Below are positions 30,651 to 52,426 of a DNA stretch of 64,000 bases, one piece after another (the first letter of the stretch is position 1; each line of letters starts with the position of its first letter). A program made the translations under genes and the position numbers. The notes beneath the pieces were generated by a model. That model worked only from the letters and a program-made list of their open reading frames with translations. It made no database searches and was not told where the DNA came from. Origin of the DNA: an uncultured Bacilli bacterium (GTDB lineage: Bacteria > Bacillota_I > Bacilli_A > RF39 > UBA660); NCBI GenBank assembly GCA_934098745.1, contig CAKOPG010000009.1, positions 51-64,050 on the forward strand, given 5' to 3'.

Positions 30651-30967
30651 AGGGGATGTGGTCCAACTAATATGTGTGAGTATTATATAGATTCATCAGG
30701 TAATAAAAAGAAAAATCCTATATATCAAACTGAATGTGCTAACACTAGAAAAGAAGTGAGTTGCCCATGAAATGGTCATTTTCTTTCATTATAACTATTG
30801 TAATAAGCCTACTTGCAATAATTATTATTTCTTTTAATAAAATAACCGTATCCAATGAACAAGATAATTACAATAATAATGAAAATATATCAACTGAATC
30901 AGTAGATATTACTTATTTTAGATTAACTGGTGAAATAAAAACAAATCAAGAAAAAATTTATTCATAA
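30649..30967 (+). pseudogene. Decayed duplicate of the 3' end of the 535-aa gene plus the 5' third of the 146-aa gene (33367-33690)
   Basis: The first ~125 nt are nearly identical to 33367-33490, with about 5 differences including a 2-nt indel. Beyond that it diverges. The 68-aa remnant ORF MKWSFSF... parallels MKWSFASIG.... Confidence 0.85.
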
Positions 30968-31177: not shown

Positions 31178-31882
31178 ATGAAAAGAAAAAAATGTTTATT
31201 ATTAATTACACTTTTATCTCTTTTATCAACAAACAAAGTATATGCAGCATGTACTGAAGCCGAGTTAAATCATTTTAAAGAAATTGAAAATCAATATAGT
31301 GTTACATATGAATATGATAAGAATACCGATGAATATAGTATCATTTATTATATGCCAGAGCCAAACAAATACGCCTATTACATATTTCTACCACAAGATA
31401 CAGTTTGTACATCTCCTGCTCTTAGTACTTTGAAATGTACTGGTAAAAATTTATCAGGAAAGTATGAAATGATCATCCAAGGAACAACCTCTAGTTGTAC
31501 TGATGATTTAAAAAAAGAAAGTTTAGAAATTCCAAAATATAATAAGTACTATGGCCGAGAAGAATGTCAAGGAATAGAAGAATTCTCTCTATGTCAAGAA
31601 ACATATAATAAAGACGTTACGGAAGAAGACTTTAAATCAAGAACTGATCTATATAAGGAAAGTAAAGCAAATAATCCAAGTAGTAGTACAAATAATAATA
31701 ACAACAATAATGATAATGATAAAAATAACAATATTAAAGAAAATACTTTTTTTGAAAAAATAGTATATTATGTTCAAAATAATTTAACAAAAGTAATAAT
31801 AATTACCGTATTTATAATATTACTCGTTATAACCGGAGTAATAACTATAAAATCTATCAAAAAAAGTAGGCGATTAGAATGA
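31178..31882 (+). CDS. Secreted or anchored Cys-containing protein with an Asn-rich linker and C-terminal TM
   Basis: Signal peptide (LLLITLLSLLSTNKVYA). 10 Cys. NNNNNNNDNDKNNN tract. C-terminal TM plus KKSRRLE. RBS AAAGGAGG. Confidence 0.6.
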   Translation: MKRKKCLLLITLLSLLSTNKVYAACTEAELNHFKEIENQYSVTYEYDKNTDEYSIIYYMPEPNKYAYYIFLPQDTVCTSPALSTLKCTGKNLSGKYEMIIQGTTSSCTDDLKKESLEIPKYNKYYGREECQGIEEFSLCQETYNKDVTEEDFKSRTDLYKESKANNPSSSTNNNNNNNDNDKNNNIKENTFFEKIVYYVQNNLTKVIIITVFIILLVITGVITIKSIKKSRRLE

Positions 31883-33486
31883 AAAATGCCAAAAAAATAT
31901 TTCTCCTACTAATAATTGCTATTATAGTCTTTTCTTCGTGTGGAAACATAGTTAAGGCAGACGGACCATCCGTAAGTGCTGGCGACGGTGGCGGTACCGG
32001 CGGTGGCGACGGTGGCGGCGGTGGCGGCGGTGGCGACGGTGGCGGCGGTGGCGGCGGCGGCGGCGGTGGTCGGTCTGCAAATTGTTCCTGCTCGGTGTCA
32101 GGATGCATAGCTAGTTATGGATTAAGAAGACGAGATTATAAAGCACAATGGAAAATATATGATGCCTATAATAATGATGTAGAAATAACTGGTCAAAGTA
32201 TAATTGCTGGAACTCAATTAGGCTTTAATTTATATGAGGAAAGAAAAACCTATTGGTATGCCACCGGAGCCACACAATATTCATGTACTTGTTGGTATTT
32301 TGAGATGGTAGCATATGATTGTACTGGAGATCATGGAGAAGCATGGATATGTTATACGCCAATAAAACACACTTACCCATCCGGTTATGTTGGAAACACC
32401 CCCGGATGTTACAATCAGAATGCAGATGCAGCATATTATTTAGCAAAAAACGATGTAGAATCGGGTGCTTCATACTCATTAACAATTCCCGATCCAAATG
32501 ATGCCAGATGCGCTGATCCAGTAAAATATAAAGAAGAATTAGAAAGAGATAATGTTATTTGCAATAATTATACCAGTGTTGAAGCTATTCCTGGTGAAAC
32601 CTCAGAATATAGAACCAACCCTGTAACGAAAAAATACTATTATGAAATGTATGGTTCATGTATAAATGTGAAGACAGGAAAAGTTAGATATTTAAGTAAA
32701 GATGATAAATGTAATGATGAAGAGTATTATATTGCCAAAGATGAGGAAAATGAAGCAACAAGACATTGGCATGTATTTACCCCATTAAATACAAAAACAC
32801 CAAGCGGTTACGCTTTAACTCTAGATGGAAAAAGTAAAGGAACAAAACAAAAAGGTAATCTTTGCGAGGCCATTGTTGAGAAGTACAAAGAAAATTACAA
32901 ATATATGCGATATATTATTCCATTAACGGGTAGCTTTACAAGAAATGTAACTGCCGATAAGAAGAAAGTGTCAAATGGTTGTTATATGCAAACGTTAGTT
33001 AGTATTCCAACCATCCAAAAATTCTATGGTGAAGAAATAAATGATGCCGGTGATGATTCAACTTTAATTGGTTTCCAATTCTATTATCGTCAAATAGATA
33101 TAACTAATCCATTTCCTAATGGTATAGCTAATGATAGTTATTGGAAAGATTGGGAAGATAATAAAAAGGATCCTGATATAGAAAAATCATATAATAATGT
33201 CACATATCAGACAGATGGCATAGACTTAAGTTATATAAGAGATTATAATGATAAAAATAATTATACTAGTTGGAAAACTATGAATATTAATGGAACAAGT
33301 CCTTTTATAACAAGTGGCAAAATAGTAAGTAGAAGTAGTACTATTAATCAACAATCACTATATAATCTAGGATGTGGTCCAACTAATATGTGTGAGTATT
33401 ATATAGATTCATCAGGTAATAAAAAGAAAAATCCTATGTATCAACCTGAATGTGCTAACACTAGAAAGGAAGTGAGTTGTCCATGA
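31879..33486 (+). CDS. Secreted Cys-rich protein with an N-terminal poly-Gly tract
   Basis: ATGA overlap with the previous gene. Signal peptide. GDGGGTGGGDGGGGGGGGDGGGGGGGGGGG tract. More than 20 Cys across 535 aa. No family recognised. Confidence 0.6.
   Translation: MKNAKKIFLLLIIAIIVFSSCGNIVKADGPSVSAGDGGGTGGGDGGGGGGGGDGGGGGGGGGGGRSANCSCSVSGCIASYGLRRRDYKAQWKIYDAYNNDVEITGQSIIAGTQLGFNLYEERKTYWYATGATQYSCTCWYFEMVAYDCTGDHGEAWICYTPIKHTYPSGYVGNTPGCYNQNADAAYYLAKNDVESGASYSLTIPDPNDARCADPVKYKEELERDNVICNNYTSVEAIPGETSEYRTNPVTKKYYYEMYGSCINVKTGKVRYLSKDDKCNDEEYYIAKDEENEATRHWHVFTPLNTKTPSGYALTLDGKSKGTKQKGNLCEAIVEKYKENYKYMRYIIPLTGSFTRNVTADKKKVSNGCYMQTLVSIPTIQKFYGEEINDAGDDSTLIGFQFYYRQIDITNPFPNGIANDSYWKDWEDNKKDPDIEKSYNNVTYQTDGIDLSYIRDYNDKNNYTSWKTMNINGTSPFITSGKIVSRSSTINQQSLYNLGCGPTNMCEYYIDSSGNKKKNPMYQPECANTRKEVSCP
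31981..32073 (+). repeat. Near-pure (GGY)n trinucleotide tract
   Basis: About 93 nt built almost only of GGC/GGT/GAC codons, inside an AT-rich genome. The antisense poly-Pro ORF (31857-32108) is an artefact of this tract. Confidence 0.9.
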
Positions 33487-33917
33487 AATGGTCATTTGCT
33501 TCCATCGGAATGATTGTAATGGGTTTATTTGGAATCGTTATTATCATGCTCTTTAATGAAATAACCGTATCCAATGAACAAGATTATTACACGCTAAAAG
33601 ATGCTACGGAAGCAGCATTAATCGAATCAGTCGATGTTGCTTACTTTAGGTTAACTGGTGAAATAAAAATAAGTCAAGAGAAATTTGTTGAAAATTTTAC
33701 TCGTAGATTTACAGAAACTTCAACATTTGGACAAGGAAATTACAATATTGAGTTTTATCAAATAAGTGAAATTCCTGCTAAAGTAAGTTTAAGAATAATT
33801 GATTCAACTAAGAAATACAATATATACAATTCATTTAATGGTGGTAAAGTAGAAGTAGATCCTACTGAAACTAATATCGTTAATGAACTATCTGCAATAT
33901 TAGATGGTTATAAATAA
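33483..33917 (+). CDS. Small N-terminally anchored protein, possible minor-pilin or pilus-assembly component
   Basis: ATGA overlap with the 535-aa gene. One N-terminal hydrophobic helix (SIGMIVMGLFGIVIIMLF). It sits first in the Tad-core gene string. Confidence 0.5.
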   Translation: MKWSFASIGMIVMGLFGIVIIMLFNEITVSNEQDYYTLKDATEAALIESVDVAYFRLTGEIKISQEKFVENFTRRFTETSTFGQGNYNIEFYQISEIPAKVSLRIIDSTKKYNIYNSFNGGKVEVDPTETNIVNELSAILDGYK

Positions 33918-33940: not shown

Positions 33941-34819
33941 ATGAATATGAACAATTTAAAAAAATTCTTGAAAAACAAAAACACCGTTACAATTTTAGGA
34001 GTTTTAGCTTGTTTAGTAATTCTATATGCTGGTTATACCATGAGAATAAATAAAAAGACTGCTCTTGTTGACGTATATTATGCTAACCAAACTATTCAAC
34101 CTAAAACCTTAATTACTGAGGATATGATATCAAAAACAAGTGTTCCTGAATCATTTATTTTAGGTACATACTATAAAAACTATAAAGATATCGTTGGAAA
34201 GTACAGTAATTATAACACCATGATTGCTAGTGGAAGTTTATTCTACTCAGACTTGCTAATCGAAGAGGAAAATTTACCTGACGCTATTCTTTACAATGTA
34301 AATGAAGGAGAAAGAGTCGTAAGTTTCCCTGTTGACACTGTTACAACTTATGGAAATACAATGATGCCTGGAGATAAAATAGATATTTATGTAAAATTAA
34401 TTCAAGATGGCAAAGTTATTTATGGGGATTTTATGAACAAAATTGAAATCCTTGGTGTAAAAGATGCTAGTGGCAAGAATGTATTTGAACGTACAGATGA
34501 AAGTAGAACTCCTGCTTACATGTACTTCTCATTACCTGAAGTAAAATATTTATTATTTTCTTCATTAAACTATGTATCAGACTACTTTGGAGAGTATGAA
34601 ATTGAAGTAGTCCTTGTACCAAATACCGTTGAATATAAAGATGATGATGTTACGGCTACTGAAGTAACAAGTAATTATCTATATGATTTCGTTGTTGACA
34701 AAATTGAAAAAATTGATGATCAACAAGATTTATATAATCAATTAATCAATGAAATGGAACAAGAAGCATTGAGAAGACAACAACAAAATATTGATGATAA
34801 TACTACTAACAATGATTAA
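33941..34819 (+). CDS. cpaB: CpaB/RcpC-like Flp pilus assembly protein (SAF domain)
   Basis: N-terminal TM followed by a SAF-like segment (VDVYYANQTIQPKTLITEDMI). Located immediately upstream of the CpaF ATPase. Confidence 0.6.
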   Translation: MNMNNLKKFLKNKNTVTILGVLACLVILYAGYTMRINKKTALVDVYYANQTIQPKTLITEDMISKTSVPESFILGTYYKNYKDIVGKYSNYNTMIASGSLFYSDLLIEEENLPDAILYNVNEGERVVSFPVDTVTTYGNTMMPGDKIDIYVKLIQDGKVIYGDFMNKIEILGVKDASGKNVFERTDESRTPAYMYFSLPEVKYLLFSSLNYVSDYFGEYEIEVVLVPNTVEYKDDDVTATEVTSNYLYDFVVDKIEKIDDQQDLYNQLINEMEQEALRRQQQNIDDNTTNND

Positions 34820-45426: not shown

Positions 45427-47106
45427 ATGAAAAAACATGGATTATTAAAAATCTTAGGATTACTTTTACTACTTGTAGCTGTAGTAACTTATTTCGTACC
45501 TGGAAGACAAGATGTTGTAAATTTCGTAGGTTTAGTAGACATTCCTATAAATTACTTCAGTATTGTTCTCCAAAACTTTAGTTATATATTTCTATTAGTT
45601 TTAACAATAGGTGGTTTTTATGGCGTTTTAAGTAAAATACCTGCTTATAAAAAATTATTAGATAATATTGTAGCCAAAGTAAAACCATTAGGACACAAAT
45701 TTATCTTTTTGGTTATTATCTTATTTGCCGTTATTGCTTCACTAACTGGAATGAATATTCAACTATTAGTATTTGTTCCCTTTGTCGTTTCAATAATTAT
45801 ATTATTAGGATATGACAAATTAGTAGCTTTATCTTCAACCATTGTCAGCATTTTAGTAGGTTATTTAGGAGGAATATTTGTAAATATTGTTAATCCTAAC
45901 ACCTATGGCGTTTCTACTTTTGAAGAATTAGTAGGTTTAGAAGATAAATACGCTAATGTCTTTCCAAAATTATTATTACTTTTATTAGGCATCGCCCTAT
46001 TAATTTACTTTGTAAATAAATACATAACAAACGTAGAAAACAAAAAAGTTAAATATGAATTAAATGATAACTCAGAATTACTAATAAATGAAGTAAAAGG
46101 AAGTTATAAAAATATTAAAGTATGGCCATTAGTAATGATTTTATCAATATTATTCATTATTATGGTATTAGGAATAATTCCATGGGAATCATTATATGAA
46201 GTTGATTTCTTTACATTATTCCACGAAAGAGTAGTAGGATTAACTATAGGAAATATAATATTTAGAATATTACTTATAGCTGTTATCTTCGGAATTATTC
46301 AATTAGGTATTTACTTAGTTTCATTAATTAAAAAGAGTAAATATACTTTTAAAGCAACAATTCCTGTATTTGCATCTCTTGCCATTGCTTTGACATTAGA
46401 AATATTAAGTGTAGGTAAAATATGGAGTATTTATGATGTATCTTTCATAAGTAAAATAGTTAAATTCTTTAGTGGTAATAACTTCTTTGATTTTGCTTTC
46501 ATTAGTAATATTATTTCTGCTAAATTACCAGCTCTAGGAGCATGGGACACAATAAATGGTAATATTTACCCAGGTGGTGTAAACTACATTTACATAAGTA
46601 TTCTTCTATTATTTGTAACATTAGTTATTGCCTTAATTAGCAAAGTAAAATTAAATGATGCCATGGATTACTTTATTGAAGGAATCAAAAAAGCTTTACC
46701 AGCTGGTATCCTAATGACCCTTGCTTATACCGTATTAATATGTGCATATAACAATGGTTTCTTAGAAGGAATTATTTCTAATTATGGTAAATTCAATTTT
46801 GGTATATCATCAGTTCTTGCATTCTTTGGATGCTTACTAAATGTTGATATGTACTATATCACATATGGATGTTTCTTACCAATAATTAACCTAGTAACCG
46901 ATGAAACAATATATGCCGGATTAGCTATCTTACTACAAGGTATCTATAGTATCTTTAGTCTAGTTGGTCCAACAAGTTTAATCTTAATATTTGGATTAAC
47001 TTATATGGATGTTCCATATACAACATGGCTAAAATATATTTGGAGATTTGTTTTAAGCCTAATAATTCTCCTAGCCTTAGTAGTTTTAATCGTTGTATTA
47101 CTATAA
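45427..47106 (+). CDS. Polytopic membrane transporter-like protein (YfcC/DcuC-like, tentative)
   Basis: 559 aa with at least 12 TM helices. The N-terminal LLLVAVVTYFVPG resembles the YfcC family start. Family assignment is uncertain. Confidence 0.45.
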   Translation: MKKHGLLKILGLLLLLVAVVTYFVPGRQDVVNFVGLVDIPINYFSIVLQNFSYIFLLVLTIGGFYGVLSKIPAYKKLLDNIVAKVKPLGHKFIFLVIILFAVIASLTGMNIQLLVFVPFVVSIIILLGYDKLVALSSTIVSILVGYLGGIFVNIVNPNTYGVSTFEELVGLEDKYANVFPKLLLLLLGIALLIYFVNKYITNVENKKVKYELNDNSELLINEVKGSYKNIKVWPLVMILSILFIIMVLGIIPWESLYEVDFFTLFHERVVGLTIGNIIFRILLIAVIFGIIQLGIYLVSLIKKSKYTFKATIPVFASLAIALTLEILSVGKIWSIYDVSFISKIVKFFSGNNFFDFAFISNIISAKLPALGAWDTINGNIYPGGVNYIYISILLLFVTLVIALISKVKLNDAMDYFIEGIKKALPAGILMTLAYTVLICAYNNGFLEGIISNYGKFNFGISSVLAFFGCLLNVDMYYITYGCFLPIINLVTDETIYAGLAILLQGIYSIFSLVGPTSLILIFGLTYMDVPYTTWLKYIWRFVLSLIILLALVVLIVVLL

Positions 47107-47107
47107 T

Positions 47108-47137
47108 AAAAAAGCCGATTTCTAATTATCGGCTTTT
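47108..47137. terminator. Bidirectional rho-independent terminator between convergent genes
   Basis: AAAGCCGAT-TTCTAATT-ATCGGCTTT, flanked by A-runs and T-runs. Confidence 0.75.
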
Positions 47138-47183
47138 AAAATAATTATTTCTAATTAATATATTTAAAAACAAATAACTTTAA

Positions 47184-47933
47184 CTAGCTATTTGTTTTCC
47201 TTTTTTGAATATTATATGCCACTTTAAGAAGTAACTTCGTAGGTAAGAATCTACTAAAAAATATTCCCAATTTCATATACATACCCGGAATAATTATTAA
47301 CTTACCCTTAAACATCTTATCAATAGCATACCTAGCAACATATTGTGCATCCAAAGATTTCATATTAAATCTTACATGTGCTCTCTTATTAAAATTCGTA
47401 TCCACAGGACCTGGGCATAAAACTGAAATATGTTTATTTTCCTTAGATCTCCTTAACTCCTCATATAATGCTAAAGAATAACTACACACATAACTTTTCG
47501 TTGCATAATAAGTACTCATTAACGGCCCACCTTTCATAAGCCCCGCTGAACTAGATACATTTAAAATGTATTTAACATTCTTATTATTTATAAATAATTT
47601 TGTTAAAGTATGTAAGCATTTAACATTTAAGTCAATCATATTTAATTCAATATCCAAATTATCTACTTGATAATTACCATAAGCTCCAAAACCAGCATTA
47701 TTAATAACTATAGAAATATCCTGATCCTTTACTTCATCATATAACTTATAACAGTTACCAATATCAGATAAATCGTACGGAAATATCTTGATATTTGTCT
47801 TAAGTCTATTCTGAAGTTCTTTTAATTTATCTTGACTCCTTGCTACCAAAATTAAATCATATCCCAATTCCGATAAATAAATTGCCATTTCCTTACCTAT
47901 ACCAGAACTAGCCCCTGTTATTAACGCTTTCAT
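47184..47933 (-). CDS. Short-chain dehydrogenase/reductase
   Basis: TGASSGIGK cofactor motif, NNAG, and the catalytic YYATK. Confidence 0.85.
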   Translation of the reverse strand: MKALITGASSGIGKEMAIYLSELGYDLILVARSQDKLKELQNRLKTNIKIFPYDLSDIGNCYKLYDEVKDQDISIVINNAGFGAYGNYQVDNLDIELNMIDLNVKCLHTLTKLFINNKNVKYILNVSSSAGLMKGGPLMSTYYATKSYVCSYSLALYEELRRSKENKHISVLCPGPVDTNFNKRAHVRFNMKSLDAQYVARYAIDKMFKGKLIIIPGMYMKLGIFFSRFLPTKLLLKVAYNIQKRKTNS

Positions 47934-47960
47934 ATCAAATCACCTCACTATTATTATACA

Positions 47961-48039
47961 CTATTGTTTAATTTTTAAAAATAGTATATAATACTTAACA
48001 AGTGAATAATTACATCAAAATTACAAAAAATATTACTAG
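47961..48039 (+). repeat. Left direct repeat of the retron/Rpn islet (decayed copy of the rluB promoter and 5' end)
   Basis: 47961-48000 is identical over 40 bp to 50422-50461. The next ~39 bp match about two-thirds, and the rluB ATG is mutated. Confidence 0.9.
47964..47992 (+). promoter_or_regulatory. Sigma-A promoter inside the left repeat, oriented into the retron
   Basis: TTGTTT (47964-47969), 17-nt spacer, TATAAT (47987-47992). The same element lies upstream of rluB in the right repeat. Confidence 0.6.
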
Positions 48040-48088
48040 ATTTAATAGTTTAATTATTGAAAGAACCATCATCTAAATAGTAAAATTA

Positions 48089-48264
48089 TATATAGCAATA
48101 GCGTGTGGATAAATATCCCCTTTAACGAGTCGTTAAAGCACCTAATTATTAAAGACATGAATTATAATTTTCCATAGGACCTAACTATGGCTAGCCATAG
48201 ACACTTCATTACATTACGTTAAGTCCAATTCCAAATTATAATATCATAAAGTATTGCTTATATA
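48089..48264 (+). ncRNA. Retron msr-msd non-coding RNA
   Basis: a1 TATATAGCAATA (48089-48100) is complementary to a2 TATTGCTTATATA (48252-48264) with one bulge. TAGCG follows a1. Hairpins lie at 48107-48118 and 48120-48138 (CTTTAACG-AGT-CGTTAAAG). A long imperfect hairpin spans 48161-48242 (ATTATAATTT/AAATTATAAT) with the apex palindrome CTATGGCTAGCCATAG. Confidence 0.7.
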
Positions 48265-48281
48265 CCGAGGAGGTAATAAAT

Positions 48282-49253
48282 ATGTGGAAATATCTGACTA
48301 AAGAAGCCGAAATCAAATATTTATTATCTATTCATTTAATTGATGGCACTAGTGATAAAGATATCTTAAATAAAATATATACAATAAGTAACAATAAAGA
48401 GAAAAATTATAAAATATATAAAATAAAAAAGAAAAATGGTCATTATCGTACTATTTATGCACCTAAACCTAATCTCTTAATTATTCAAAAAAATATCTTA
48501 AAAAATATTCTTGAAAAGAGAAGTATTTCTAAATATGCTAGAGCTTATAAAAAAGGAATAACCCTAGTTGATAATGCCAAGGAGCATCTAAATAAAAAAA
48601 TAATTCTTAAATTAGATATAAAAGATTTTTTTAACAGTATCCAATATATTCAGATATATAATACCTGTTTTCCTCAAGAATTATTTCCTAAATCCATTGG
48701 AACTCTTCTTACAAATTTATGCACTTGTTATGATATTCTTCCTCAAGGGGCACCAACCTCATCATATATTTCTAATCTTGTTATGTATAATTTTGACATA
48801 ATCATAGGGACATTTTGTGACAGTAGAAATATTGCCTACACAAGATATTGTGATGATATGACCTTTTCTGGAGATTTTGATTATCATGAAATAATTAATC
48901 TTGTAAAACAAGAACTGACAAAATTAAATTTATCTCTAAACATGAAAAAAATTCATGTAATTACCCAAAAGAGTAGGCAAATAGTTACCGGTGTAGTCGT
49001 CAATAAGAAATTACAGGTAGCTAAATATTATCGTCAAGAAATAAGAAAAAATGTATACTATATAAAAAAGTATGGCCTTATTTCTCATTTAGGAAGAACA
49101 AATAACAAAATGGCCCCAGTTACTTACCTAAATACCTTATTGGGAAAGATTAATTATGTTTTGCAAATAGATAAATCTAACAAAGAATTTATAAATTATA
49201 AAAAAGAAATCCTAAAAACAATTAAAAACATTCATAATAAAAAAATAATTTAG
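48282..49253 (+). CDS. Retron-type reverse transcriptase
   Basis: 323 aa. NAKEH (NAxxH), QGAPTSSYISN, RYCDDMTFSG (YxDD) and RQIVTGVVVN (VTG) motifs. RBS GAGGAGG. Confidence 0.85.
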   Translation: MWKYLTKEAEIKYLLSIHLIDGTSDKDILNKIYTISNNKEKNYKIYKIKKKNGHYRTIYAPKPNLLIIQKNILKNILEKRSISKYARAYKKGITLVDNAKEHLNKKIILKLDIKDFFNSIQYIQIYNTCFPQELFPKSIGTLLTNLCTCYDILPQGAPTSSYISNLVMYNFDIIIGTFCDSRNIAYTRYCDDMTFSGDFDYHEIINLVKQELTKLNLSLNMKKIHVITQKSRQIVTGVVVNKKLQVAKYYRQEIRKNVYYIKKYGLISHLGRTNNKMAPVTYLNTLLGKINYVLQIDKSNKEFINYKKEILKTIKNIHNKKII

Positions 49254-49336
49254 TTATCTCTCAACGCTATTGTTTTGTTAGTCATTTGACATATTTTTAT
49301 GTAAAATAATTAAATTTATTAATTTATAAAAATTAG

Positions 49337-49377
49337 AAAAACAGTTAAAATACAATATAAATATTTAACTGTTTTTT
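49337..49377 (+). terminator. Rho-independent terminator after the RT gene
   Basis: AAAAACAGTTAAA-(14 nt)-TTTAACTGTTTTT. Confidence 0.7.
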
Positions 49378-49510
49378 AATATCTGTTTACTTCATATTAC
49401 AGAATTTAATAAAATGATAAACTTATTATTCAGAAATACCATATTTTTTACAAAGAGTTAATTTTGACAATTTTTTTTAATTTTGTTATAACCAAAAAGA
49501 AGGAGGCTAT

Positions 49511-50326
49511 ATGGCTAAATTTTACAAAATAAGTACAGACGGTATGTTTAAATCTATCTTTGAAAACGAAAACAATAAGCATCTATTAGAAAGAATAATT
49601 GAAGAAGTAATTAAAGAAAAAGTAATTATTACCAAATTACTAGTACCAGAACTAAGAAAAAATAAAATAACTGTAAAAGGAAAGACTTTAGACGTATTAG
49701 TAAAAACAGATAATAAAGAAATTAATATAGAGATTAACTCTTCAATGTATGATGATATTAAAAGAAGAAATGCTGGATTTATTTTCAGAAGATATAGTGA
49801 TTCCGTTGGTATAGGGGGAAGTTATGATAAAATGCCAGGGTTTATTCAAATAAACTTTTCAGCTAATTTAGGAAAGAATTATCCCATGGTAGCGGAATAC
49901 AATTTATATGATGAAAAGGCAAAATTAATGTTCATTAACAACTTCAAAATATATGAAATAAATCTTGAAAAGTATAAGAAGTTTTGCTATGATAATAATA
50001 TCTTAAGTCTCATATCAATGCTCGATATGGACTATGGAGAATTAATAAATGTTAAGGGTGATAAAGATATGGAAAAATTAAGAGATGAAGCACTAACATT
50101 AAATAATGATTCAGAACTTTTAAATTATTTGTCAGATGAAGAGGAAGAAAAATTAATTAAAAATACATACATATCAAAGGGCATTGAAAAAGGTATTGAG
50201 CAAGGTGTTGAGCAAAATAAAATAGAAATGGTTAAAAAGATGCTAAAAGAAAACATCGATATTAGCATTATATCTAGAATATCTGGATTAAGCAAAAGTG
50301 AAATAGAGAAGATTAGAAAAAATTAA
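49511..50326 (+). CDS. Rpn/YhgA-like PD-(D/E)XK nuclease family protein (TIGR01784-type putative transposase)
   Basis: N-terminal DGMFKSIF...LL and KGKTLDVLVKTDNKEINIEINSS (D...ExN core in place of ExQ/K). The C-terminal GIEKGIEQGVEQNKIEMVKKMLKENIDISIISRISGLSKSEIEKIRK repeat-plus-HTH tail is typical of the family. Own promoter: TTGACA (49464-49469), 17 nt, TATAAC (49487-49492). Confidence 0.75.
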   Translation: MAKFYKISTDGMFKSIFENENNKHLLERIIEEVIKEKVIITKLLVPELRKNKITVKGKTLDVLVKTDNKEINIEINSSMYDDIKRRNAGFIFRRYSDSVGIGGSYDKMPGFIQINFSANLGKNYPMVAEYNLYDEKAKLMFINNFKIYEINLEKYKKFCYDNNILSLISMLDMDYGELINVKGDKDMEKLRDEALTLNNDSELLNYLSDEEEEKLIKNTYISKGIEKGIEQGVEQNKIEMVKKMLKENIDISIISRISGLSKSEIEKIRKN

Positions 50327-50421
50327 TCTTTTCCATGAAGTAATACATAATTGCGTTAGTCCTCTGGGATAATCTAAAATTAATCCTTGTAGTTACTCTT
50401 CTTACCAATTCATTGTATCTG

Positions 50422-50500
50422 CTATTGTTTAATTTTTAAAAATAGTATATAATACTTAACAGGTGAACAAGTATGGAAAGATTACAAAAAGTAATAGCTG
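50422..50500 (+). repeat. Right direct repeat (functional rluB promoter and start)
   Basis: Partner of 47961-48039. Contains the rluB -35/-10 elements, RBS and first codons. Confidence 0.9.
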
Positions 50501-51189
50501 ACTTAGGATATTCTTCAAGAAGAAAAGCCGAAGAACTAATCCAAGAAGGCAAAGTTAAAGTAAATGGAATAACCATTACAAAACTAGGTACTAAGGTAAA
50601 AAGTAGCGATACTATTGAAGTAGAAAACACTATTTTAGATAACAATAAAAATTATGAATATTATCTTTTGAATAAGCCCCGTGAAGTAATTTCTTCTGCT
50701 CGTGATGAACACGGTAGAACAACCGTAGTTGATTTAATAAAAACAAGCCAAAGAATATATCCTATAGGAAGACTTGATTATGACACTACTGGAATAATTC
50801 TTTTGACAAATGATGGTAATCTTGCTAACAAACTAATGCATCCATCTAGTAAAATTGAAAAAAAATATGTAGCTAAAGTAAGTGGTTTGGTTACTGGGTA
50901 TGATATAAAAAGGCTTCGCGAAGGCGTTATCGTAGATGGCAAAATTACTGCTAAAGCCAAAGTAGATTTGAAAAAATATGATAAAAAAACAGATAAATCT
51001 CTTGTAGAATTGACTATTCATGAAGGTAGAAACCATCAAGTCAAAAAAATGTTTGAAGCCATTAATCATGATGTTATAAAATTAAAAAGAGAAAAATACG
51101 CTAATCTGGATTTAACTGGTTTAAAACCTGGAGAATATCGTCATCTAACTAACAAAGAAATAGCTGTTTTATATTCATTAGTGAAGTAA
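50473..51189 (+). CDS. rluB: Pseudouridine synthase, RsuA/RluB family
   Basis: N-terminal S4 domain (RLQKVIADLGYSSRRKAEELI) and the catalytic RLDYDTTGIILLTNDG. Confidence 0.9.
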   Translation: MERLQKVIADLGYSSRRKAEELIQEGKVKVNGITITKLGTKVKSSDTIEVENTILDNNKNYEYYLLNKPREVISSARDEHGRTTVVDLIKTSQRIYPIGRLDYDTTGIILLTNDGNLANKLMHPSSKIEKKYVAKVSGLVTGYDIKRLREGVIVDGKITAKAKVDLKKYDKKTDKSLVELTIHEGRNHQVKKMFEAINHDVIKLKREKYANLDLTGLKPGEYRHLTNKEIAVLYSLVK

Positions 51190-51191
51190 AA

Positions 51192-51686
51192 ATGTTAAAT
51201 AGTATTATTTTCTTAGACATCGATGGTGTTTTAAATTCAGATAGTACCTTTAAAGAAAACGAAGGCTTTAGTAAAGCTATTTCAAAGTTACCAAAAAATA
51301 GCTCTCCTTCACCCCTTTATTTAAGTCAAATAAATGATTTGGATAATAATAAAATATCTCTAATTAAAGAATTATCCCATGTTACAAATTCCAAAATTGT
51401 TATCACTTCAACATGGAGAAATCTAAAAATATGGCCATTAATAGAAGAATATCTAATTACCAAAGGTTTGCCCGTTATTGATACAACCCCATATATAGAG
51501 AATAATCGTAGCAAAGAAATAGCTACATATCTAAAAGAACATCCGGATATTTCCAATTTTATAATTATTGATGATGACTTCTTTCCCGGATATGAAGAAT
51601 ATTGCGATAAATTTATTCATCCTAGTTTTTATCAAGATGGCTTTACCGAAGAACATCTAGAATTAGCTAAAACTCTCTTAAAGTAA
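51192..51686 (+). CDS. HAD-like hydrolase domain protein
   Basis: IIFLDIDGVLNS motif I and IIIDDD motif IV-like. 164 aa. Confidence 0.5.
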   Translation: MLNSIIFLDIDGVLNSDSTFKENEGFSKAISKLPKNSSPSPLYLSQINDLDNNKISLIKELSHVTNSKIVITSTWRNLKIWPLIEEYLITKGLPVIDTTPYIENNRSKEIATYLKEHPDISNFIIIDDDFFPGYEEYCDKFIHPSFYQDGFTEEHLELAKTLLK

Positions 51687-51829
51687 TTAATATTAAATAA
51701 TAATAAATTAATAAAAAAAATCAAGAGTTCAAATACAAACTTACTTTACTCTTGATTTTTTATCTATTCTTATTTAAATAAAATCCACTTATCAACGTTT
51801 AAACATCTATCTTCTCATTAGTTGATAAA

Positions 51830-52426
51830 TTACTTATTCTTTGCTTTTTTTCTTTTTTTATCTTTATCCATATCAATACTAATATATTTTATTAAAGTTA
51901 TCACTTGACATATAATCGTAACAATTGAAGATATAAAAATAACTTTAATATTGGTTTCAGGAATGTACACTAAAATTAATGTTATTGATAATAGTGTCGT
52001 TTTAATTTTTCCTATAACAGTTGATCTCGGATGATTTCCTTTTGCCTCGGATAACAAATTGGTATAACTAATAGCTATTTCCAGTATCAAATTAAATAAT
52101 AAAATATAACATTCAAATACAGTTGGAATTACCAAACTCATCGCAAATATTTTATCGCAAACTGCATCGAGTTTTACACCGAACTCCGATACATAATTAT
52201 ATTTTCTAGCTATTCTCCCATCTAAAAAGTCTGTTATAGCAAAAAATATCAAAGCTCCAATAGCAATCTTTATTTCCCCTAAAAGCATTGATGGAATAAT
52301 TATAAAAGGGGATAATGCCCTAGAAAAAGTTAACATATTAGGAATTTGCCTTTTAATATTACCATTCTTAATATCTTTTATCTGTAATTTAAAATCTTTA
52401 AAAAACTCTTTTATCATTTTTTTCAT
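51830..52426 (-). CDS. CDP-alcohol phosphatidyltransferase family protein
   Basis: DFLDGRIARK...GVKLDAVCDK matches D(x2)DG(x2)AR...G(x3)D(x3)D. Multi-TM. Confidence 0.8.
   Translation of the reverse strand: MKKMIKEFFKDFKLQIKDIKNGNIKRQIPNMLTFSRALSPFIIIPSMLLGEIKIAIGALIFFAITDFLDGRIARKYNYVSEFGVKLDAVCDKIFAMSLVIPTVFECYILLFNLILEIAISYTNLLSEAKGNHPRSTVIGKIKTTLLSITLILVYIPETNIKVIFISSIVTIICQVITLIKYISIDMDKDKKRKKAKNK

Follow-up and report, generated by a model that had tools for sequence, protein, structure and literature searches.

In a 64,000-nucleotide stretch of an uncultured Bacilli genome (contig CAKOPG010000009.1 of GCA_934098745.1, hereafter the window), a retron and an Rpn-family nuclease gene lie between a short-chain dehydrogenase (SDR) gene and rluB, which encodes a 23S rRNA pseudouridine synthase. 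They sit as two self-contained defense-type modules in a 2,461-bp accessory segment that is bracketed by two copies of the rluB promoter (P). The duplication looks like the scar of ordinary recombination and not like a new kind of mobile element. Specifically, we give a probability of roughly 0.5 to a homology-driven recombination of two arrangements, one with the retron behind rluB and one with a HAD_SAK_2 gene behind rluB, which would have left a dead rluB stub in front of the retron and a left promoter copy that is still active. The repeat, the empty sites and the linkage of retron and rluB in relatives, the structure of the retron RNA, the protein families, and the conservation of the promoter blocks are shown here. 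We infer the recombination history, the promoter activity, the synthesis of multicopy single-stranded DNA (msDNA), as well as the defense roles that are discussed here.

The duplicated rluB promoter

The two repeat copies, 47961-48000 and 50422-50461, were identical at all 40 positions, exactly as an initial annotation of the window had reported. At up to 3 mismatches, this 40-bp block matched the 64-kb window only at these two sites, and it had no match in 100 shuffles. Homology continued without gaps for 44 more bases (48001-48044 versus 50462-50505), of which 30 were identical; the decayed homology described initially is thus present, but its length is 44 bases instead of ~39. Pairs of random 44-mers from this 28% GC window matched at 13.2 ± 3.2 positions, and a fraction of only 3.5e-5 reached 30 matches. 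The 16 bases that follow matched at 6 positions, which is chance level, and the sequences 5' of the two copies were unrelated to each other. In total, the partial duplication spans 84 bp comprising the rluB promoter, its 5' untranslated region (UTR), and the first 11 codons. The start codon was lost in the left copy, as previously claimed: the ATG of rluB at 50473 corresponds to ACA at 48012-48014. Changes between the copies were distributed unevenly, with 0/40 in the promoter block versus 14/44 in the adjoining stretch (Fisher p = 4e-5).

The dead gene start does not seem to be of foreign origin. Against a set of 95 rluB starts, it was 30/44 identical to the working copy in the window and 31/44 identical to that of a retron-free relative (L016), and no other lineage was closer. 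We therefore rejected an origin from a foreign lineage, since identity to all others was lower.

The arrangement is not an assembly artifact. An independent k141 contig (L001/L011; 29,850 bp) covers both repeat copies at 99.93% identity. Logan contigs built with k=31 from several assemblies end exactly 30 nt into each copy, resulting in contigs of 2,481 bp (2,421 + 2 x 30), as expected of a true 40-bp repeat. In one Logan assembly (ERR7738593; L015), the contig on the SDR side broke off at window position 47975, after 15 nt of the repeat rather than 30 nt. The early break hints at a variant T-run in the promoter block of another strain or species that co-occurs with this one.

Features of the segment and its flanks are collected in Table 1. 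Profile matches and RNA folding bore out the gene content given in the initial annotation, with a retron noncoding RNA (ncRNA), a reverse transcriptase (RT), and an Rpn-like nuclease between the repeats and with SDR and rluB as flanks. They likewise agreed with its statement that integrases and transposases are lacking, because neither the segment nor its surroundings gave a match to an integrase or a conventional transposase in searches with Pfam, PADLOC, and NCBIfam. The segment also has no inverted repeat by which its ends would pair.

Table 1. Coordinates of the accessory segment and its flanking genes in the window.
Feature	Coordinates	Strand	Details
SDR gene, left backbone flank	47184-47933	-	Pfam adh_short, 7.5e-29; divergent from shared intergenic promoter region
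Left repeat copy, ancestral rluB promoter P (predicted)	47961-48000	+	-35 TTGTTT 47964-47969, 17-nt spacer, -10 TATAAT 47987-47992
Dead rluB 5'UTR and first 11 codons (psi-rluB)	48001-48044	+	In-frame TSKLQKILLDLIV* versus MERLQKVIADLGY in working gene
Joint between rluB stub and retron module	48045-48074	+	30 nt; no significant match to rluB or any fetched locus as to origin
Retron-proximal promoter-like site	48057-48086	+	TTGAAA-18-TAAAAT; ends 1 nt before a1; best-scoring in region, 10/12
Retron ncRNA (msr-msd)	48087-48264	+	a1 48087-48100 pairs with a2 48251-48264
Retron RT, Ec107-like clade	48282-49253	+	NAKEH aa 98, YCDD aa 189, VTG aa 235
AU-rich 14-bp hairpin, then T-run (A-run 5')	49336-49384	+	Minimum free energy (MFE) -11.4 kcal/mol, z = -3.2
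Nuclease promoter-like site	49464-49492	+	TTGACA, 17-nt spacer, TGT-TATAAC extended -10 (TGTTATAAC)
Rpn-family PD-(D/E)XK nuclease (RpnL-like)	49511-50326	+	TIGR01784, 58.9 bits versus cutoff of 52.1
Promoter-like site within nuclease gene	49965-49993	+	TTGAAA-17-TATGAT, TG extension; candidate gene-within-gene, 49965-50326
Segment Y, between nuclease stop and right promoter copy	50327-50421	+	95 nt; right end is novel junction
Right repeat copy, working rluB promoter, 5'UTR, and first 11 codons	50422-50505	+	-35 50425-50430, -10 50448-50453
rluB-type 23S rRNA pseudouridine synthase gene, right backbone flank	50473-51189	+	S4 and PseudoU_synth_2; Pfam and NCBIfam

Relatives with and without the retron

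We scanned for RluB (238 amino acids in the window) with one genome per species, and the matches came from metagenome-assembled genomes (MAGs) of uncultured gut Bacilli, the closest being 88% identical. An empty SDR-rluB site with a single repeat copy, which the initial annotation had put forward as a check on insertion, was found in three related species (L016, L017, L021). In these species, SDR and rluB were divergent and ~80 bp apart with one promoter copy between them, and 36 nt of the block in L017 were the same as in the window. The SDR gene was syntenic in L016, L017, L018, L021, L096, L099, and L109. At L018 (6066-8000 and 8772-9671), the same SDR-rluB gap was filled by a uracil-permease gene and a uracil phosphoribosyltransferase gene fragment on the minus strand with no repeats, and an IS3-like transposase open reading frame (ORF) was located just 3' of rluB.

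A clue to the origin of the segment came from four sister species (L096, L099, L100/101, L109; P0014, P0005, P0004, P0022), which carry an orthologous retron on the other side of rluB. Their RTs were 64-67% identical to that of the window and all had the YCDD box; the closest RT homologs outside the species were 64-68% identical, and these four are the ones whose gene neighborhoods we looked up. In each case, rluB is intact and 1-25 nt separate its stop codon from the start of the retron RNA, and the order Dus-RDD-lysS-DcuC-SDR(-)-rluB(+)-RT(+)-...-SpoVS(-)-Alr was kept in 4/4 loci. In relatedness to the window, these hosts match the species with empty sites (RluB 78-87% identical, DNA ~75%), and the similarity patterns of RT and RluB were roughly congruent, with L096, L100, and L109 together in both. 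DNA homology between the window and the sister loci covered only the retron module (48075-49250), starting ~10-12 nt inside the 3' ends of their rluB genes. RTs at 58-59% identity were found in unrelated gene contexts. No direct repeats beyond chance flanked the retrons of the sister species, no PDDEXK_2 gene was present at the four loci, and the terminators 3' of their RTs had no similarity. RT-based scans of metagenome and viral contigs returned distant RTs only (33-56%) and no viral match, because the back-translated peptides were poorly conserved. Hence, the claim that everything between the repeats is foreign to the backbone stood insofar as the segment is missing from the gap in L016, L017, and L021, but it failed for the retron, which has orthologs behind rluB in four sister species.

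The genes on the far side of rluB differ as well. From rluB to SpoVS, the four sister loci (L096, L099, L100, L109) are without the HAD_SAK_2 and CDP-alcohol phosphatidyltransferase genes that are present in the window and in retron-free relatives. Judging from gene content, the retron and this gene pair appear to behave like alternative cassettes. The genes 3' of P-rluB in the window (HAD, CDP-OH transferase, SpoVS) make up a right half of the retron-free type: the HAD_SAK_2 gene at 51192-51686 is tightly coupled to rluB, and the same rluB-HAD junction occurs in retron-free L016.

We propose that the window represents the left half of an SDR-P-[rluB]-retron-RT arrangement fused with the right half of a P-rluB-HAD arrangement, with the Rpn gene and the 95-nt segment Y at the joint. 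Because the sister retron sits behind a complete rluB, the rluB 5' fragment before the window retron can be read as a stub or as recombination homology. A crossover in the promoter/rluB region, either a single (Campbell-type) or an unequal one, together with one illegitimate joint (between Y and P, 50421/50422), would have brought the retron linked to rluB, followed by the Rpn gene, to a position ahead of a second P-rluB copy. Being redundant, the 5' rluB would then have shrunk to the 44-nt dead stub, and no integrase or transposase would be needed. Afterward, the left copy would still supply part of the divergent SDR promoter and the right copy would drive rluB, with the 40 bp held identical by strong purifying selection, possibly with gene conversion, while the stub decayed.

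The proposed event resembles known Campbell-type or unequal recombination in that the added DNA lies between repeats made of host sequence (promoter and gene start), one of which has a working gene and the other a truncated one, and in that there is no recombinase gene. It differs from the plain form in that only 84 bp of homology are left (40 identical), the Y/P joint is illegitimate, and the event is a reconstruction. The window also holds a second partial direct duplication of similar span (30655-30967 and 33370-33686; ~305 nt, 83-89% identical, spacing of ~2,720 bp), which indicates that such events occur in this genome. Its first copy repeats the 3' end of a 535-aa ORF and the first 68 codons of a DUF5411 gene (33477-33917), and the duplication brackets the ORFs at 31178-31882 and 31879-33486, beside Flp/Tad-type pilus genes (RcpC-like at 33941-34819). 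A 9-nt periodic repeat rich in GGC/GGT (31980-32078) encodes a glycine run in the 535-aa ORF and stands out in this 28% GC genome.

The segment ends offered few further clues. Segment Y has a GC content of 0.32, compared with 0.17 in the neighboring spacers, and its minus strand holds an open frame, such that Y may be the relic of a gene. Neither blastn nor tblastx found homologs of Y, and it has no terminator-like fold. When the spacer between the RT and nuclease genes and segment Y were compared with other loci and with the rest of the window, we rejected the matches as low-complexity sequence.

Several observations weigh against the recombination that we propose. Local alignments of 48045-48087 with the body or 3' end of rluB were no better than those of shuffles, and the sole shared 9-mer, TAGTAAAAT, was rejected as a remnant because it is the -10 box of the retron; hence, the stub of a once-complete rluB is unproven. 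No intermediate with two full rluB copies and no empty site of the same species was found, as all conspecific contigs have the same arrangement: every contig with an identical RluB, RT, SDR, or nuclease was either filled or broken at the repeat. The window RT was no closer to that of L099, which is nearer by RluB, than to the other cluster (66% versus 64-67%), which leaves it uncertain whether the retron descended vertically. L021, a more distant species, has no retron, so the linkage of rluB and retron may be the derived state. Within the perfect block, the final 8 nt (ACTTAACA) are variable between species yet identical in both copies (0.68^8 = 0.046); selection alone explains this less well than gene conversion or a recent event would. 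Finally, promoter use is read from sequence only.

An alternative is that a foreign islet of retron and nuclease was inserted in one step, before the rluB coding region or at codon 11, with an 84-bp target duplication that captured the promoter and a left remainder that decayed. The sharp repeat ends at 47961 and 50422 and the exactly one copy at each of the three empty sites fit such an event, as does a left promoter that was kept, aims into the retron, and is followed by no terminator. The retron-free outgroup L021 and the rluB-HAD junction of L016 also suggest an ancestor without a retron at this position. However, a single insertion does not explain the orthologous retrons directly behind rluB in four sister species, and the segment has neither terminal inverted repeats nor a recombinase. 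To our knowledge, 84 bp is far longer than the target duplication made by any known transposition mechanism. The retron and nuclease also look like separate transcription units with separate histories. On balance, we consider a one-step insertion rather unlikely.

Sharp outer boundaries around perfect 40-bp repeats also resemble attL and attR, which raises the prospect of a small site-specific integrative element that uses the 40-bp block as its att site and a recombinase encoded elsewhere or on a helper element. The divergence of one side past the core is as expected when an element carries its own copy of the target gene end. Yet no integrase is encoded in the segment or the adjacent genes, the block occurs only 5' of rluB at every locus examined, and searches of phage and plasmid collections found nothing related to the segment DNA. 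Moreover, sister species share the retron half at another position relative to rluB and without such repeats. Taken together, these points make an integrative element improbable. Retron-bearing, prophage-like elements between direct repeats are known: Like the elements of phiR73/Ec73 and Ec67, the window has a retron inside a repeat-bounded insertion beside host genes. In those elements, which span tens of kilobases, a phage integrase made the repeats as att sites; the window segment, by contrast, is 2.4 kb, is without phage genes, and has a host promoter as its repeat.

Two separate modules

As judged from its protein and RNA sequences, the retron falls within the Ec107-like "orphan" group that lacks a conserved effector. 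Among PADLOC models, its RT best matched RT_Ec107-like (3.7e-122, 405 bits versus 347 bits for the next model), with RT_III-A models following, and it matched RVT_1 in Pfam (8.2e-22). Region X (NAXXH) and the VTG motif, both features of the retron clade, were present, and the window RT shares with its four closest orthologs the YCDD box that has been noted for Ec107 (PMC6868368). Directly 5' of the RT gene is a structured ncRNA with a1/a2, msr hairpins (48107-48118 and 48120-48138), and a long msd stem (48157-48246), which is the canonical layout of a retron RNA. The fold had an MFE of -34.7 kcal/mol (z = -3.1) that was equaled by 0/200 shuffles. In an alignment of eight sequences (the window and 7 homologous loci), 13/29 consensus pairs had compensatory changes, including a1/a2 (GCAATA/TATTGC versus TCAATA/TATTGA). 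Retrons produce branched msDNA from the 2'-OH of a conserved G, and the conserved AGCG that follows a1 is a candidate branch region. Rfam had no family matching the ncRNA when we scanned 46500-52000 at E ≤ 1.

No neighboring gene was common to the 8 loci of this RT family, so we found no co-evolving effector, the third component of the tripartite system of Mestre et al. This fits the known state of the Ec107 branch, whose members are orphan retrons without an associated protein (clade 2 of Mestre et al. 2020; PMC7736814). In two RT family members at greater distance (58-59% identical), small genes that no PADLOC model matches come after the RT gene (L111, 6015-6506; L113, 6069-7878). One of these loci gave a weak AAA_18 match and the other encodes two proteins of no known family, and it is possible that these small genes are unrecognized retron partners.

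The retron is comparable to Retron-Eco5 (Ec107) of E. coli in being a compact module of ~1.2 kb (promoter, msr-msd, RT) with no conserved effector, situated among housekeeping genes without signs of a prophage or mobile element. Ec107 replaces a 34-bp intergenic palindrome. The window retron differs in its host, which is a low-GC uncultured Bacilli lineage, in the tie of its module to rluB in five species, and in the dead rluB start and duplicated promoter that precede it; its msDNA is only predicted.

Two promoters may serve the retron. Across six related species in which P is single-copy 5' of rluB, its 29-nt core had 0-5 substitutions, implying a strongly constrained promoter. The first ~20 nt of the left copy also hold the likely -35 element of the divergent SDR promoter (minus-strand sites at 47979-47950). 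From the left copy to a1, no terminator-like fold was seen, and transcripts would thus be expected to read through into the retron; the better preservation of the left copy relative to the adjoining 44 nt fits continued use or purifying selection. A scan for terminators based on G+C content found none in the region. In 8/8 family loci, three of which have no link to rluB, a (TG)nTAAAAT-like -10 box was located 6-12 nt 5' of a1. Since the retron has its own conserved -10 box even at loci unrelated to rluB, promoter capture is not required, a point against the one-step insertion. The retron's own promoter would drive msr-msd and the RT, and the RT would be expected to copy the msd into msDNA. 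The left promoter would still fire rightward through the stub into the retron. The initial annotation had proposed that the captured promoter drives the retron. What can be kept of this proposal is that the left copy aims into the retron, is well preserved, and is followed by no terminator; its role is better described as a plausible addition to the promoter that the retron already has.

One could go further and suppose that this retron lineage is functionally wired to rluB and that the promoter was duplicated to keep the wiring, with RluB/23S rRNA pseudouridylation or the adjacent Rpn protein as missing partner or trigger. This idea, which we hold to be very unlikely, builds on the position of the retron 3' of the rluB promoter in every species that carries this retron lineage. 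If true, it would supply the partner or trigger for Ec107-type retrons, which have been without a known effector since 2020.

The nuclease is a free-standing module separate from the retron, as suggested by its sequence and context. It passes the curated cutoff of TIGR01784, which describes the Rpn family of recombination-promoting nucleases/putative transposases, and it also matched PDDEXK_2 (PF12784; 5.9e-13, 49.5 versus a cutoff of 27.4). Residues D61, E74, and N76 were invariant in 10 nuclease homologs, and the two acidic ones are candidate counterparts of the catalytic residues of RpnA. In the C-terminal region is a series of four-residue repeats, KGIE-KGIE-QGVE (residues 223-234), the number of which varies among homologs. 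No homolog exceeded 61% identity, and most were on very short contigs; those with context were solitary, with unrelated neighbors, for example RNase HII or a glycoside hydrolase. One homolog (L114, 5961-6712; 54% identical) adjoins a gene of the bAvd family. The bAvd protein is an accessory protein of diversity-generating retroelements.

A probable second start within the nuclease gene would give rise to a small C-terminal antitoxin, to judge by its conserved sequence signals. The ATG at 50069 (Met187) was nearly invariant and has a Shine-Dalgarno (SD)-like GGTGAT 9 nt upstream. Initiation there would yield an 85-aa RpnS-like protein containing the KGIE repeats. The internal SD, the ATG, and the TG-extended -10-like box lie within conserved codons and were common to the window, L114, and L119. 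This design is known from RpnL/RpnS, in which the antitoxin RpnS is encoded inside the nuclease gene and a KGIE repeat has been described (Zhong et al. 2023; PMC10400941). The window nuclease resembles Rpn (YhgA-like) proteins in passing the TIGR01784 cutoff, in its PDDEXK_2 domain, C-terminal KGIE-type repeats, and conserved internal Met with SD-like sequence and -10-like box, and in being solitary, horizontally scattered, and beside another defense gene. It is only ~25% identical to annotated plasmid Rpn genes, and 36 residues, not 8-20, separate the candidate internal Met from the start of its repeats. By comparison with Rpn, its toxicity and its small protein are only predicted, from sequence.

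Three observations separate the nuclease from the retron: the stretch between their genes contains a hairpin with T-run and a separate promoter-like site, none of the other retron loci has the nuclease, and homologs of the nuclease are solitary. The hairpin is possibly a weak, bidirectional terminator given its fold and flanking A- and T-runs, although our G+C-based terminator scan did not call it. The promoter-like site before the nuclease was read from the sequence, as the scan missed it due to a -10 hexamer ending in C. The view of retron and nuclease as one islet unit, as given initially, is therefore not upheld.

These data also bear on whether the two genes form one system, a new type of retron, in which a complex of msDNA and RT would restrain a PD-(D/E)XK effector until phage infection and the nuclease, by its recombination-promoting activity, may have made the insertion. 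Both genes are adjacent on the same strand inside the repeat-bounded segment, and Ec107-type retrons are without a known effector (PMC7736814). Rpn proteins are DNA endonucleases that are toxic and act against phages, and the surroundings of defense genes are enriched in rpn genes (PMC10400941). Nevertheless, the pairing was seen in this species only, and none of the 7 other loci of the RT family had a PDDEXK_2 neighbor. The nuclease homologs that we examined stand alone, the nuclease appears to have its own antitoxin start like a free-standing Rpn, its strong promoter is separate from the retron, and no PADLOC model for retron effectors matches it. A shared system is accordingly a remote prospect in our estimation. 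As for insertion by the nuclease, rpn genes are not conventional transposases and spread by recombination or hitchhiking (PMC10400941).

Accessory genes seem to gather beside rluB. In another Bacillales MAG (L032, 819-2659; RluB 65% identical), a 312-aa PDDEXK_2/Rpn-like gene is directly 3' of rluB. A candidate relic of an RT 3' end between these two genes was rejected as A-rich low-complexity sequence.

What the arrangement means

Both modules are of known kinds, and they can be accounted for without a new insertion or mobility mechanism. What is new is local, namely the host lineage, the persistent linkage to rluB, and the scar left by promoter duplication. The retron is a clear example of a non-enterobacterial Ec107-type orphan, with an ncRNA supported by covariation and a conserved promoter of its own. 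It has been kept beside a housekeeping gene, rluB, across at least five species of gut Bacilli and in two arrangements. The window further illustrates how a small defense segment may be added beside a housekeeping gene without a recombinase, leaving as its scar a second promoter copy and a dead gene start. Finally, it offers a testable case in which two copies of one promoter would serve a housekeeping gene and a defense module.

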